The notes below the pieces were generated by a model. It did no database searches, had not been told where the DNA came from, and was given only the letters and a program-made list of their open reading frames with translations. Of a DNA stretch of 64,000 nucleotides, positions 4,988-62,960 are shown piece by piece. The stretch comes from Eledone cirrhosa. Taxonomy: Eukaryota. The stretch spans positions 8,246,001 to 8,310,000 of the forward strand of contig OZ024762.1 of the NCBI GenBank assembly GCA_964016885.1. The letters run 5' to 3'. Each line of letters opens with the position of its first letter. The stretch's first letter is position 1. Both the position numbers and the translations under genes were made by a program.

Positions 4988-5023
4988 TCTTAACGTTTCG
5001 GACGCTAGTCTTTCATCAGAAGA
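4988..5023 (-). ncRNA. Second copy of the minimal hammerhead-like motif
   Basis: Reverse complement reads tctt-CTGATGA-a-agac(tagc)gtcc-GAAA-cg-TT-aaga. Flanks 4905-5035 match 59821-59965. Confidence 0.65.
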
Positions 5024-7959
5024 AAGAATGAGGAATTAGAAAAATTATATATATTCATATATATTCATATATATAAAGAATTCGAAGTTTGAAAGCCACA
5101 ACAATGCAAAATGGATGGATAAACAAACAAGTCGGATGAAACAAGATGTTATGTGTTTTACCTTAATTTATTTATATGTCCTGATATTTCAAAATTAATA
5201 TCTCTTCTTCTGAGGAAAATAAAAGGGACTAATCCAGTGTCTGATGAAGCACACTATACCATGCTGACAGCAGTGGTTTTTTTTTTTTTTTTTTAGGGCG
5301 GGGAATTGGCAATATCGGTAGAGAGTTGAACGCCATGCTTTCTAGCATAGTTACGTCCCTTTATGATCTGCGTTCAAATCCCGCCGAGGTTAACTTTGGC
5401 TTTCATCCTTACGGGGTCGATAAAATAAAGTACCAGTAATGCACTGGATAATTGCTGGCCTTGTGCCAAAAGTAGAAACAATTATTTTTTTTTTTCAACC
5501 TCTTTTGTTTTAATAAAATTATAGTTCTTGATAGGTCAAAAGGGGCACAGAGTTATTTCCCCTTAAATCTACATAAATACATACATACAACAACCCTGAG
5601 CACCATTTTGATTTCCATGTGAGCATGCCTACAAAGTCAGAAAACAGCACAGCTCCCATGACTTTCGGAAACATTTTTTCAAGCTCAGAGTTGCTGAAGC
5701 ATGGAACAAACTACCTGCATCAGTTGTTAGCTGCCGAGACACTGCAACTTCCATGTTTCCTGAAATTTGCCAACACTACACTTGATATTCCTCCTCCATA
5801 CACATGTACACATGTATATCATGACTCATACACTGTTCACTTTCCTGACATTTGTACATTATTCTATGTACTATATGTGCACCTTTGATGAGTTGCAGTG
5901 TACCTGACACTATACACAATAATTTCATTATTATTATTATTGTGTGCTGCCACACACGTTCACATACATGTGTAAACATGCAAGCTCACAGACATGCATG
6001 AATATAATCGTATAAACACATACATGGACATACACAATTTCTCACAGTTAAATAATCTGATGGGAGTGTGTCTTCTCACATAAGTAAATCAGCCCACATA
6101 TATGAAAGGCCAGTTATAAGTAAATCAGCCCACATATATGAAAGGCTGCATAGTAGTGAGACATGGGCAGCAACTGCAGAGGATATGTGACGGCTGGAGA
6201 GAAATGAAGCAAGCATGTTCCGTTGGATGTGCAATGTCAATATGCGTGAATAACCAAGCATAGACGAGTTGAGAGAGAAACTGTGTATAAGAGGGATAAG
6301 TTGTAGTGTGCGGGAGAGAAGCCTGCATTGGTATGGATCTTGTTAAATACTCACTCTGCAGCCAACAGGCTTCTGGTTCAGTTCTGCTGAGTGACACCTT
6401 AAGCAAGTATCTTCTTCTATAACCTTAGGTTAACCAATTCCTGTGAGTGAAATTTGGGAGACAGAAACTATTCAGTTTCTATTTGAATTAAAATTTCCAC
6501 CATAATCTTTCATCAAGTCTGCTACATATTAATTACCATCTTAATAATGAAATAATTAATGATTTTAATAAATTCTCCAACTTCTTCGTTATTTCTAATG
6601 AAATACACTGTATTTCATTAGAAATATGATCATGAAAGGGTTAAGGCCATTTTCCCTGTTAAAGCAAGGTTTAGCCATGTGGAGACACCATAGGAGATGC
6701 AATCATAATGATGAGGCCCTAAAGCAAGATTTAGGCATGTGGGAGTCACCATACTGGACATAGTCAAGGTTTAGGTATGTGGAGGGCACTATAGCTGATG
6801 TGGTCATGATTTAGGCATGTGCGGACACCATAGCAGATGTAATCAAGGTTTAGGCATGGTTGGGCACAGTAACAGATGTAAGCAAGGTTTAAGCTTGTGG
6901 GAGCGCCATCCAAGCCATAATTATACTTATGATGGTGTCCTTTTACAACAATGTTTTATGGTCAGGTCAGAGGCAATATTTTAGGTGTCTTAGTAGTCAT
7001 TAAAGTGTCAGTTGAATTAGTTGTTACAGTCAGATTTAATGCTTAGTATTCATTTCAGCTTACTGTGCTCAAAGTTCAAATTCCAGTGAGGTCAAACTTG
7101 CCCTTCATCCATCTGGTATCAATAATTGAAGTATTAGAGAGGTCAACTTTGATCTTACATCCAAGTGGACAATAGAATGGAGAAAGTGTTTTCCCCAGAG
7201 GAGAGTGAGGGGACACATTGGAATGGTCATTCCAACTGACAGGGCTCACTCCTGAAGGTGGCCAACTCCACCCTGATAGCAGTGAATAGAGAGCTGGTTT
7301 AGGGACCCAGAACACCAGAAGTCTTCACTGTTATATGTTTTAAAATGACAATGACAACGATGATGATGATGATAATTAATATATTAATATAAAAAATGAT
7401 AATCATGGATAATTATTTTTTCACCTGGAAAAGCAGGTGTTAAAATGACAATGACAGTGATGTTGAAGATTGATATATTAACACAAAAAATGATAATTAT
7501 GTATAATTATTTTAAAAAATTTTACCCAAACTTTTTTAGAGAAGGGCTCAAATTCCTACAGCTTAGGGTCTCAGCATGTGAAAATTCATCTCCACCTCTG
7601 GTTGGTTCCATGTGTGGTTTAATATGAAAAAAGTTAAGGAAACATAAATACAAATATTCTAATTTTTCTTGTTTTTCAGCCATAAAAAAATAGAAGAAAG
7701 ATCATTTCTCACAACACTAAGTTCTTGTTTATTATTTTACAAAAAGTTTTCTTTACTTTTGTCACAATTTCTTTATGTTGTCAATATTTTTCAAAACAAC
7801 ATTTCAAAAAGATTGACTTTCCAGGAAGACAAATACAACCTTTTGTTGACCACAACTGACTACAACAATACAACTTTTAAAACTATGAGAAAGTACCTAG
7901 GATGGGAAGATAATGCTTATTTAGTGTTAGTTAACAACTGGTAAATGTTCTTTAGTCTT

Positions 7960-8605
7960 TTGCTACTACTACTACTACTACTGCTGCTGCTGCTGCTGCT
8001 GCTGCTCTACTACTACTACTGCTTCTACTACCACTACTATTGCTGCTACTACTACCACCACAACTGCTACTACCACCACTACTGCTACTGCTACTGCTAC
8101 TACTACCACTACTGTTACTACTACCACCACCACCACTACTGCTACTACTACCAACACCAGCACTACTGCTACTACTACCAACACCAGCACTACTGCTATC
8201 ACTACCACCGCTAGTACTATTACTGCTATTACTACTACCATAACCACCACTACTGCTACTACTACTAACACCACTACCACCACCACTACTGCTACTACTA
8301 CTAACACCACCACCACTACTGCTATTGCTACTAACACCACCACCACTACTGCTACTACTACAAACACCACCACCACTACTGCTACTACTACCATCACCAC
8401 CATTACCACTACTACTACTAGAATCATAACCACCATAACTATTATTACAACTACCACAACCACAACCACCACCACCACAACCATCACCATCACTACCACT
8501 ACTACAACTGTTACAATAGACATTATAACCACCACCATTAACACTACTACTGCCATTGTTATCACCACCGCCATCACCAATATCATTATTATTATTATCA
8601 TTATT
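7960..8605. repeat. Compound trinucleotide tract (ACT/ACC/GCT/ATT)
   Basis: Direct inspection. Source of the poly-S/G/V/L pseudo-ORFs. Confidence 0.95.
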
Positions 8606-9344
8606 AATGCACTGGTTAATTGCTGGCCTTGTGCCTAAAGTAGAAACAATTATCATTATTATACGGTGGATTGGCAGTATCGGTAGAGGGTCGGACGCCA
8701 TGCTTTCCAGCATAGTTACGTCCCTTTACGATCTGAGTTCAAATCCCGCCGAGGTTGACTTTGCCTTTCATCCTTACAGGGTCGATAAAATAAAGTACCA
8801 GTAATGCACTGGGTAATTGCTGGCCTTGTGCCTAAAGTAGAAACAATTATTATTATAATTGTTTCTACTATTGGCACAAGGCCAGCAATTACCCAGTGCA
8901 TTACTGGTACTTTATTTTATCGACCCCGTAAAGATGAAAGGCAACGTTTAACCTCGGCGGGATTTGAACTCAGAAATGGCAAGGGCCGTAACTCTATGCG
9001 TCAAAGCATGGCGTCCGATACTGCCAATTCATTGCCCTTATCATCATTATTATAATATCTGCTTGCTCTGGCCGATACTCTAACGAAATAGGTTAAGTTT
9101 GGTTTCGTGTGTTTCTTAATATCAATAATCTTTGTATGACATTTATTCTTGAATTAGTTGGTGTATTTTGTGGAAAAAATTTACTGCGGACCTTCTCCTT
9201 GCTAATGAGTGGGGGGGGGGGGGGAGAGGAAATGGTAGAGGAAGATGGAGTGAAAAGTCAATGTTATGTCTGCATCATCATTTAACATCTGTTTTCCTGC
9301 TAGCAAAGGTTGAGCAGGACATCACTGACCAAGTGAGAACTCTA

Positions 9345-61310: not shown

Positions 61311-61355
61311 TTACTACAGCCACGGAAAGAAACCAAAAGGTAAGGCATTACCCAC

Positions 61356-61451
61356 CGGTGTATTCTCTGATTTCAGTCGGTTTAACACACGTGTTATGGT
61401 GTGTTGACTCTTGGAAAACTTGCCGTCTCTTTTCACATAAATACAGCCATG
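61356..61451 (-). CDS. AGPAT5: AGPAT5-like exon (HGCIYVKRDGKFSKSQHTITRVLNRLKSENTP)
   Basis: ccgtag|...|gtggg boundaries, 96 nt, HGxIYVKR motif II. Confidence 0.92.
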
Positions 61452-62884
61452 CTACGGAGATAAGAGGGAGAAAGAGATGATGATTAAGATGATGATTACA
61501 TAGAGGTTCAGAGGAAAGAGCAGAGAGGAGTTATGGTGATGATGATGATGATGGTGGTAGTGGTATATATATATATATATATATATAAGGTACATGGCTT
61601 AGTGGTTAGAGCATTGGCCTTCGTTGTGAGTTCAATTCTCAGACCGGGTGATGTGTTGTTTCCTTGAGCAAGTCACTTTATTTCACATTGCTTCAGTTTA
61701 CTCAGCTGTAGAAATGAGATGATAGGGACTGAGGTCCCTATCATACCACTGCAAAGTAGTCATGGAGGTGCCACGGCAAAAAAGCCCCCAGCCCTCAATG
61801 TAAAATGAGGTTGGTGTTAGGAAGGGCATCCAGCTGTAGAAATCAAGCCAGAATCAGTTCCTGTCCCACCCTTGCAAGTAAAGAAAAGTGGACGTAAAAT
61901 GATGATGATGATGATGATGAGGATATATATGCGAGACAAACCACAACAGAAACACAAACCTTCCATCTCAATTTTACTTTTGAAAATCATAAGAACTGTG
62001 AAACCGGTAAAGTAAATAAATAAATATTCTTAAAAGACTCCAGTTGCATTTTCAATTTCTTTTCCTTATATTCACCAAGCATGAAGCTAATAACACTATG
62101 TACTATTGACTCCTGTGTTTGTCCTTTTGAACTATATATATATACATATATATATATAACAAACAAATAGTTTCTCGGGTCATTCTACTGACATGGCTTT
62201 AAAGAGGCTGTTTGCATAATTGCAAACAAATCGAATATTATTATTAATATTCGAAAAACTGAGATTACATTTATATATATATATATGAAAATGTATGACC
62301 TCGATGGCAGAGCTCAAGACTTTTTGTACCTCTTTCAGTCCAGAAATAGCCGTCGAAACGGCTTGAGCTCTACCGTCGGGGTCATACATTTTCCTATTAC
62401 CCACTCTACTATCCTAAGTATTGAGTACTCTGGTGCGTTATGGTCCATCTGGTTCCTTACCACATTTCCTTTGTTATATATATATATATATATATATATA
62501 TATATATATATAGTTCAAGGAGACAACAAACAGAGGTACAAAAAGTCTTATTAGTTTCACGCTTTATATGGAAAAGGAGAAAGAAAGTTTGAAGTGTCGG
62601 CCTTTAGCGCTTCTTCAGGAGTACAATATTAGAGACAGGATCACAAAGGGTAGATACAGAAATAAAGGAGTCCAAGTAAAGAAAAAAAAATCGAAAATAA
62701 AGAGTGTAAACAAGACAAACCATTCAGTAGTCTTGGTAATGAGATGGAACAAGATGTGTGTGTGTGTGTGTGTGTGTGCTAGTGTCGATATTGCGTGTGT
62801 GTTTTATATATATATATATATATATATAAATTATATTGGGAAAAGCAAACAAGATAAAGAAGAAAAATTTACCTATTTACTTTG

Positions 62885-62960
62885 AATATACCTACTGCAG
62901 TTTCATTGAGTAAACCTCAGTTTTGAGTATTTCGAAAACTTCAACTCGTCAGGGAACATT
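62885..62960 (-). ncRNA. Type I hammerhead ribozyme-like motif in an AGPAT5 intron (sense to the gene)
   Basis: Reverse complement reads aatgttcc-CTGACGA-gttga(a)gt...actcaat-GAAA-ctgcag-TA-ggtatatt. Palindromic ACTGCAGT, GUA site, intact core. Confidence 0.7.

Follow-up and report, generated by a model that had tools for sequence, protein, structure and literature searches.

Hammerhead motifs in a 64-kb window of the Eledone cirrhosa genome as probable truncated ends of Penelope-like elements, including a lineage with a variable core position 4

A stretch of 64,000 nucleotides from the 3.0-Gb genome of Eledone cirrhosa (GenBank assembly GCA_964016885.1, contig OZ024762.1, positions 8,246,001 to 8,310,000 of the forward strand), referred to as the window and numbered from its first letter, is repeat-rich, without a convincing gene frame, and carries 15 hammerhead motifs, or one per 4.3 kb. 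Very probably, these are minimal type I hammerheads residing in the 3' ends of repeats, five groups of which (families A, B, B', C and K) represent truncated ends of coding Penelope-like elements (PLEs), with the other families likely belonging to the same class, and they would have been scattered by the insertion mechanism proposed below.

Linkage of the motifs to reading frames was assessed in loci fetched from the whole genome. For family A, a frame encoding reverse transcriptase (RT) or a GIY-YIG endonuclease (EN) was found within 1.5 kb in 8 of 29 loci (seven on the same strand and one inverted), with locus L101 holding a near-full frame, and homologues of this frame bear PF26215 and in some cases PF01541 or PF00078. 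Decayed RT/GIY-YIG frames were present in 4/29 loci of family B, a frame was reached in 7/19 loci of family B', and RT and EN frames were detected in 2/19 loci of family C after extension, at a distance of approximately 1.7 kb from the ribozyme; in loci L011 and L024, GIY-YIG frames precede the family K hammerhead. The B' locus L180 displays the order pseudo-long terminal repeat (pLTR), frame, pLTR, with its ribozymes 3,097 nt apart and the frame broken by one stop and one frameshift; homologues of the B' frame are RT and GIY-YIG proteins of 800-890 amino acids, and a linked protein has a homologue, labelled Octopus bimaculoides, with 60% identity. The arrangement of endonuclease-containing (EN+) PLEs, in which one frame encoding RT and, at its C-terminus, GIY-YIG precedes the hammerhead, was found for A, B, B', C and K, which account for 9 of the 15 window motifs and which, judged from sequence, are the 5'-truncated ends of protein-coding PLEs. 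From their motifs, families A and K are presumed to be Neptune-like and family C Nematis-like.

The structure of the carriers was surveyed in 160 loci, which were the best BLAST matches and of which a few overlap. A (TA)4 run was located near the 3' end in 118/160 loci compared with 17.6% of random windows, in agreement with the association with (TA)n insertion proposed in an earlier note on this DNA. An inverted partner was present in 49/160 loci. A second same-strand copy was found within 1.5 kb in 7/160 only, with no arrays seen, which speaks against a general retrozyme interpretation. The same note had described the elements as short, non-coding derivatives; as a general rule this is not supported, since longer copies of A, B, B', C and K run 5' into RT/GIY-YIG frames and a short unit was seen in family D only. 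Two 3' ends about 40 nt apart were found for family B', resembling the PLE tail and paired RT starts of PMC11167929: among 30 copies taken in position order, the end lies 124 nt past the predicted cut in 13 and 162-167 nt past it in 8, the remaining copies being stopped short by indels in the ungapped extension, while 5' ends are scattered. Between locus L180 and the copy surveys, the tandem of pLTR, open reading frame (ORF) and pLTR, the 5' truncation, the 5' inversion and the optional tail of 30-40 nt were all observed. A DNA search using only the segment downstream of the cut site gave no matches, and sequence patterns were used instead. Two candidate links were rejected: a pair of family G copies 2.4 kb apart (L159) as the pLTRs of one element, and a GIY-YIG remnant upstream of a family F copy (L153), as other (TA)n-bounded inserts lie between.

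Eight window motifs were searched genome-wide, family copies being collected by sequence similarity (BLAST) and not by structure. A first look gave 1854 candidates for family A, 1060 for B, 627 for B', 78 for C, 336 for D, 745 for E, 506 for F and 2637 for G; 40 candidates were scored per family, yielding 40-56 scored matches each, i.e. at least about 40 genomic copies for each of the eight families. The core CUGANGA ... GAAA ... UH in type I order was found in the majority or in intact copies of A, B', C, D, E, F, G and K, and the majorities mend the defects of the window copies, namely G10.1 (family A), stem I (D and F), G5 (F), G12 (K), and U16.1, present in 14/15 relatives, together with stem I (G). 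The earlier identification of many families of minimal type I hammerheads of the PLE kind is borne out by the match to the published consensus given below and by the frame linkage. That the stems differ between families with pairing kept also held, although partly by circularity as the examples had passed a descriptor; inside the B clade, stem II covaries (GAGAT/ATCTC versus GGGAT/GTCCC). Stem III, which had been described as vestigial and often palindromic, is palindromic in A, B, B', D, G and I, whereas C, E, F and K have stems of 2-3 bp.

Motifs were located in the window with a plain CTGANGA..GAAA scan and with a stem-aware descriptor in which stems were required. All six motifs previously described as paired are present (cores at 5019-, 21806+, 22269+, 39965+, 59839+ and 62952-) with complete cores, the stems at 5019, 39965 and 62952 being damaged. 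Both motifs with a single core mutation were recovered (42359-, G5>A; 57466+, U16.1>A), and a variant family of five, given without coordinates, fits the motifs at 5212-, 13857-, 13967+, 17857- and 59483+, which have a base other than U at core position 4 or 3. All three palindromic sequences given for stem III (AACGTT, ACTGCAGT and CTCGAG) were recovered as well. Two members are additional (48113+ and 56667-), as is one doubtful member (62618-), and the earlier figure of about one per 5 kb compares with about one per 4-5 kb here. Loose CTGANGA..GAAA matches at 15377-, 21618+ and 33344-, without relatives among the fetched loci, and at 19487-, with one weak relative there, were left uncounted. 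Most window copies are damaged and solitary. The features are as follows.

4988-5023 (-): family A hammerhead; core complete, first pair of stem II broken; within a PLE 3' end of ~130 nt (4908-5036).
5179-5216 (-): family B hammerhead; core CAGAAGA, a CpG decay of CGGAAGA; stem II damaged.
13824-13861 (-): family B hammerhead; core TGGAAGA; forms, as the inverted arm, a divergent pair with 13967.
13963-14000 (+): family B hammerhead; core CAGAAGA; direct arm of that pair; element terminated by (TA)n near 14100.
17824-17861 (-): B-like hammerhead; core CGGAAGA; stem II GGGAT/GTCCC in place of GAGAT/ATCTC; stem I damaged.
18064-18798 (-): decayed PLE reading frame; RT thumb, linker and GIY-YIG with stops and frameshifts (tblastn 46%, E 1e-41; 57% over 91 amino acids); upstream of the 17857 hammerhead on the same strand.
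21799-21861 (+): family C hammerhead; intact; 3' end of ~280 nt flanked on both sides by (TA)n runs and sharing 100% identity with other copies in the genome.
22265-22301 (+): family B' hammerhead; intact; in a 161-nt 3' end (22261-22421) preceded by a short inverted piece and 99% identical to both pLTRs of the 3.1-kb PLE at L180.
39959-40028 (+): family E hammerhead; core complete, stem II damaged at its base; an inverted arm occupies 39876-39930.
42277-42364 (-): family F hammerhead; window copy with G5>A and one mismatch in stem I; family majority complete.
48109-48151 (+): family K hammerhead, absent from the earlier note; G12>A in the window copy; relatives complete, downstream of a PLE GIY-YIG frame (L011, L024).
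56565-56671 (-): family I hammerhead, absent from the earlier note; long stem II; CAATTG palindrome in relatives.
57461-57572 (+): family G hammerhead; stem II domain of ~85 nt; U16.1>A in the window copy, U16.1 in 14/15 relatives.
59479-59516 (+): family B hammerhead; core CGGAAGA unchanged.
59835-59870 (+): family A hammerhead; intact; 220-nt PLE 3' end (59744-59965) with (CA)n(TA)n behind it; cleavage predicted to follow 59866.
62580-62623 (-): doubtful member; CTGAAGA ... GACA core; repeat ends at (TA)n; second half-core non-canonical in the few relatives seen.
62885-62957 (-): family D hammerhead; complete core, stems partly decayed; family unit ~420 nt, non-coding.

Several results weigh against the assignment of the motifs to PLE hammerheads. 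No frame was linked to D (0/19) or to E, F and G (0/15 each) within the 1.5-kb flanks, a distance that can miss a frame because the 3' untranslated region (UTR) of family C reaches 1.7 kb, and family I lay outside the genome-wide search. A Pfam search of eight frames gave one RVT_1 match only, with an E-value of 0.009, below the cut-off. The Rfam hammerhead check envisaged in the earlier note gave no window matches at E<=10, and the gathering threshold of Hammerhead_1 (RF00163) was reached by no window motif. Monomer folding energies of 12 of the 13 motifs tested were no better than those of shuffles (z +0.3 to -1.4), the sole outlier being 57466 (z -2.7).

The silence of Rfam on the window, the ordinary folding energies and the three loose core matches without relatives are what chance matches in AT-rich repetitive DNA might produce. 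Against this, 200 whole-window and 200 500-bp-block dinucleotide shuffles per descriptor setting gave, for the relaxed descriptor with canonical core, a mean of 0.03-0.04 matches (maximum 1) compared with 3 in the window, an excess of approximately 75-100-fold, so that the shuffled control, also envisaged beforehand, favoured the motifs. The strict descriptor gave 2 window matches versus a shuffle mean of 0.005-0.02 (maximum 1), and with position 4 left free 6 versus 0.085-0.14 (maximum 2), while the reversed window sequence gave none; only 3 of the 13 motifs known beforehand satisfy the canonical descriptor. Since, in addition, family majorities converge on the complete motif and the motif lies on the sense strand downstream of a PLE frame in five groups, the presence of hammerhead-shaped motifs beyond chance is confirmed, and the chance explanation, with a probability of practically nil, is refuted for all 15 motifs. 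Nor does the window stand out: the flanks of 134 other loci (406 kb) contain 40 bystander strict matches, or 6.3 per 64 kb compared with 2 in the window, in a count that keeps overlaps and is biased to TA-rich sites. A different explanation would have the families as independent short non-coding elements, either non-LTR (long terminal repeat) retrozymes or non-autonomous PLEs, spreading via self-cleaved small circular RNAs. Family D is the element that resembles these: its 3' end is repeated upstream with a period of 416, 427 and 428 nt in 3 of 13 oriented loci (6/19 loci having been lost to the anchor pattern), its longest stop-free stretch is 62 codons, and it alone has the short non-coding unit of retrozymes, whose monomers measure 150-450 bp in the portion of the account available (PMC7229834). 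Families E, F and G, with no linked frame, would fit as well, and a 2026 preprint, as far as its accessible part goes, derives retrozymes from PLEs (10.64898/2026.07.22.740005). However, the continuation of A, B, B', C and K into coding frames, the scattered 5' ends, the scarcity of same-strand second copies and the possibility that a 1.5-kb flank falls short of a frame all argue in the opposite direction, and no arrays were found in which units of 150-450 bp follow one another in tandem, each with its ribozyme, family D showing partial tandems only. We consider it quite unlikely that the families as a whole spread in this manner; family D itself is likely a short non-autonomous passenger or relative of the PLEs.

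The B/B' lineage differs from the consensus PLE hammerhead at core position 4. A hand count of the first 100 of 114 exact pattern matches of family B gave CGG in 62, CAG in 14, TGG in 12, CTG in 3 and others in 9. CAG and TGG (26 copies) are the two products of CpG decay, and four inverted pairs carry CGG in one arm and CAG in the other; therefore, the family B master had G4. The diverged 17857 copy retains G4 with a compensated stem II, and reading the family B core in a shifted register was discarded on inspection as it breaks stem I. In family B', the first 100 of 3,193 matches, also counted by hand, gave CCG 63, CTG 32 and other 5. Decay of CCG to CTG was rejected as an explanation, as the mirror product CCA occurs once in 100 compared with 32 for CTG, which indicates that U4 and C4 are both real B' subfamilies. 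The U4 of the PLE minimal hammerhead is thus absent from family B and from the C4 subfamily of B'. At position 17, B' has A in approximately 91% of 1,901 copies (173 non-A), and among 100 non-A copies T was found in 93, G in 4 and C in 3. No report of U4G or of cores of the CGGANGA type was found in literature searches, whose coverage did not extend to the main paper on PLE variants (Lunse et al. 2017); the pairing of PLE and hammerhead is known, and a lineage amplified with a G4 or C4 master is the new detail, which may already be contained in that paper.

Copies beginning at the predicted cut site were sought among the 173 B' copies in which the base preceding the site is not A, the first 100 of these (C1 to C5:93 Mb) being examined. 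In twelve, the upstream core was missing; two were dropped (a start 12 nt upstream and a 4-nt microhomology deletion), leaving 10, of which three join an inverted tail via microhomology. At three control positions, 5/21, 8/27 and 6/26 copies were truncated genome-wide and 1, 3 and 5 over the same span, with one flagged control row representing a mutated, continuing copy. Relative to the mean of 3, P(>=10) = 0.001 and P(>=6) = 0.08, with unequal denominators of the patterns and too few controls at three to account for hot spots; the excess of B' copies starting at the cut site is at most suggestive. As 29/30 B' copies extend past the cut site, the usual template would be uncut or religated RNA, as in the available part of the study of an Anolis element (PMC11167929).

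These observations bear on whether the B/B' hammerhead still cleaves. One possibility, which we hold only tentatively and think rather doubtful, is that it no longer does, the motif being kept as a protein-binding or structural element or through overlap with promoter or ORF-start signals; this concerns function only and is compatible with a PLE origin. G4 and C4 masters have been amplified to hundreds or thousands of copies, the U4C change known from a viroid lowers activity in vitro in the part of that study available, which equally records that infection is still supported (PMC3088659), and ribozyme mutants of the Anolis PLE still insert in vitro, where no RNA ends map to the cut site (PMC11167929). 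Conversely, the rest of the core is conserved in B, B' and the 17857 copy, stem II covaries, position 17 varies between A, U and C among subfamilies with G rare (4/100 non-A), as the rules of cleavage require, and the 5' ends show a weak excess at the cut site. It is conceivable, though on present evidence unlikely, that in this one PLE lineage position 4 is freely U, C or G and the RNA is still cut in vivo with the aid of the element's protein, the cut RNA sometimes serving as the insertion template and leaving the excess of copies at the cut site.

The following mechanism is proposed for the population as truncated PLE ends. PLEs nick AT-rich DNA and initiate reverse transcription internally at two sites. 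Here, the element's own RT/GIY-YIG protein likely nicks (TA)n, and reverse transcription likely starts inside the pLTR RNA at a point approximately 124 or 165 nt past the site where the ribozyme cuts, and would usually stop early or invert. As the hammerhead is sited just upstream of this start, insertions longer than approximately 160 nt would mostly carry it; with the ribozyme about 125-200 nt from the start, even short truncated products would contain one, and the density of hammerheads would therefore be explained without a separate non-coding family. The outcome would be thousands of solitary, decaying hammerheads scattered through the genome. In the parent element, slow cleavage of the tandem transcript, as a dimer or assisted by protein, may trim or circularise it. 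Window copies are likely inert because those standing alone lack a tandem partner and those in an inverted pair would fold together into one long hairpin. In the lineage that tolerates U, C or G at position 4, cleavage is likely weak or protein-assisted, and this tolerance suggests that the step is not rate-limiting.

The population itself is the expected, ordinary footprint of PLEs. The role of the hammerhead in PLE transposition is described as open in the accessible part of one account (PMC8557442), and in that of another it is not needed for insertion in vitro (PMC11167929). A lineage with an altered core letter would help to test whether PLEs need self-cleavage: the young B' family, with more than 3,000 near-identical copies in U4/C4 and A17/U17 subfamilies, and its older G4 sister would allow cleavage rate and amplification success to be compared. 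If position 4 variants are indeed cut in vivo and cut RNA is used as template, they would constitute a natural allelic series in one young family and genomic evidence of PLE ribozyme cleavage in vivo. Descriptors that fix CUGANGA lose about two thirds of one abundant family.

Further repeats were noted. At 5040-5260, 59440-59965, L141 and L132, a single (TA)n run hosts the ends of more than one PLE family, nested or side by side, which clusters hammerheads locally. Another repeat, very frequent, bounded by (TA)n and often arranged in inverted pairs, contains a GTCGAAACGGC hairpin region and occurs at 42480-42615 and 62290-62475 (+) and in many loci (e.g. L011:1900-2050); its 3' end resembles PLE ends, no CTGANGA half-core was present in the copies seen, and it is possibly a PLE end truncated within the ribozyme or without one. 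Descriptor matches in the fetched loci form 29 clusters, among them approximately 20 hammerhead families absent from the window, with stem II spanning 13 to ~100 nt. Elsewhere in the genome, 18 of 74 scored candidates exceed the Rfam Hammerhead_1 cut-off, six with one shared score (e.g. C3:10277077-10277121), and represent a more canonical hammerhead family, possibly a retrozyme. Short AT-rich repeats ending at (TA)n, with few relatives among the fetched loci, lie at 22020-22240 and 60003-60260 (-). Families resembling short interspersed nuclear elements, with at least 10-14 copies each and some with weak tRNA matches, are located at 5299-5486, 8664-8851, 25439-25626, 36476-36786, 40449-40636, 55128-55603, 58820-59007 and other sites. 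Among approximately 160 tandem-repeat rows in the window, homogeneous minisatellites are found at 49430-50347, 9350-9848, 29941-30393 and 22952-23395, with units of 84, 58, 62 and 104 nt, respectively.

A literature search on cephalopod, Penelope and ribozyme found no paper, and the comparison with known systems draws on the available portions of the accounts cited. Minimal hammerheads (min-HHR) of PLEs were described in 2014 (Cervera and De la Pena, PMC4209133) and share with the present motifs the type I topology, a short stem I, an extra base after A9, G10.1-C11.1 and a palindromic or tiny stem III; the consensus of U-rich flank, CUGANGAH, G10.1-C11.1 and palindrome is matched here. Many divergent families per genome, mostly as single truncated copies with some opposite-strand pairs 100-700 bp apart, are likewise common to both. 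They differ in that position 4 is G or C in the masters of one lineage here, compared with the published consensus CUGANGAH and the published core variant U3-A8, and in that some families have very long stem II domains of 60-100 nt; the portions of that account drawn upon mention no cephalopods. The C-terminal EN+ PLE clades Neptune, Nematis and Penelope/Poseidon (Craig et al. 2021, PMC8557442) share RT followed by GIY-YIG in one frame, pLTRs, 5' truncation, 5' inverted copies, the 30-40-nt tail, the (TA)n preference and, in the frames of families A and K, a Cys-rich linker of CX2-5CxxC type. PAc, a Poseidon element of Anolis (Frangieh et al. 2024, PMC11167929), likewise has a pLTR hammerhead upstream of two tail-defining starts of reverse transcription and AT-rich targets; however, its core is canonical and its ORF starts in stem II, whereas in L180 the long frame has its first ATG approximately 135 nt beyond the cut. 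Non-LTR retrozymes (Cervera and De la Pena 2020, PMC7229834; 10.64898/2026.07.22.740005) share with family D the non-coding unit of ~420 nt, the one type I hammerhead and copies longer than one unit, but tandem arrays with two complete ribozymes were not seen here and the other resolved families are the ends of coding elements. On sequence criteria, and with family B and the C4 subfamily of B' departing from it at U4, the window population belongs to the min-HHR class of PLEs and is not a retrozyme population.

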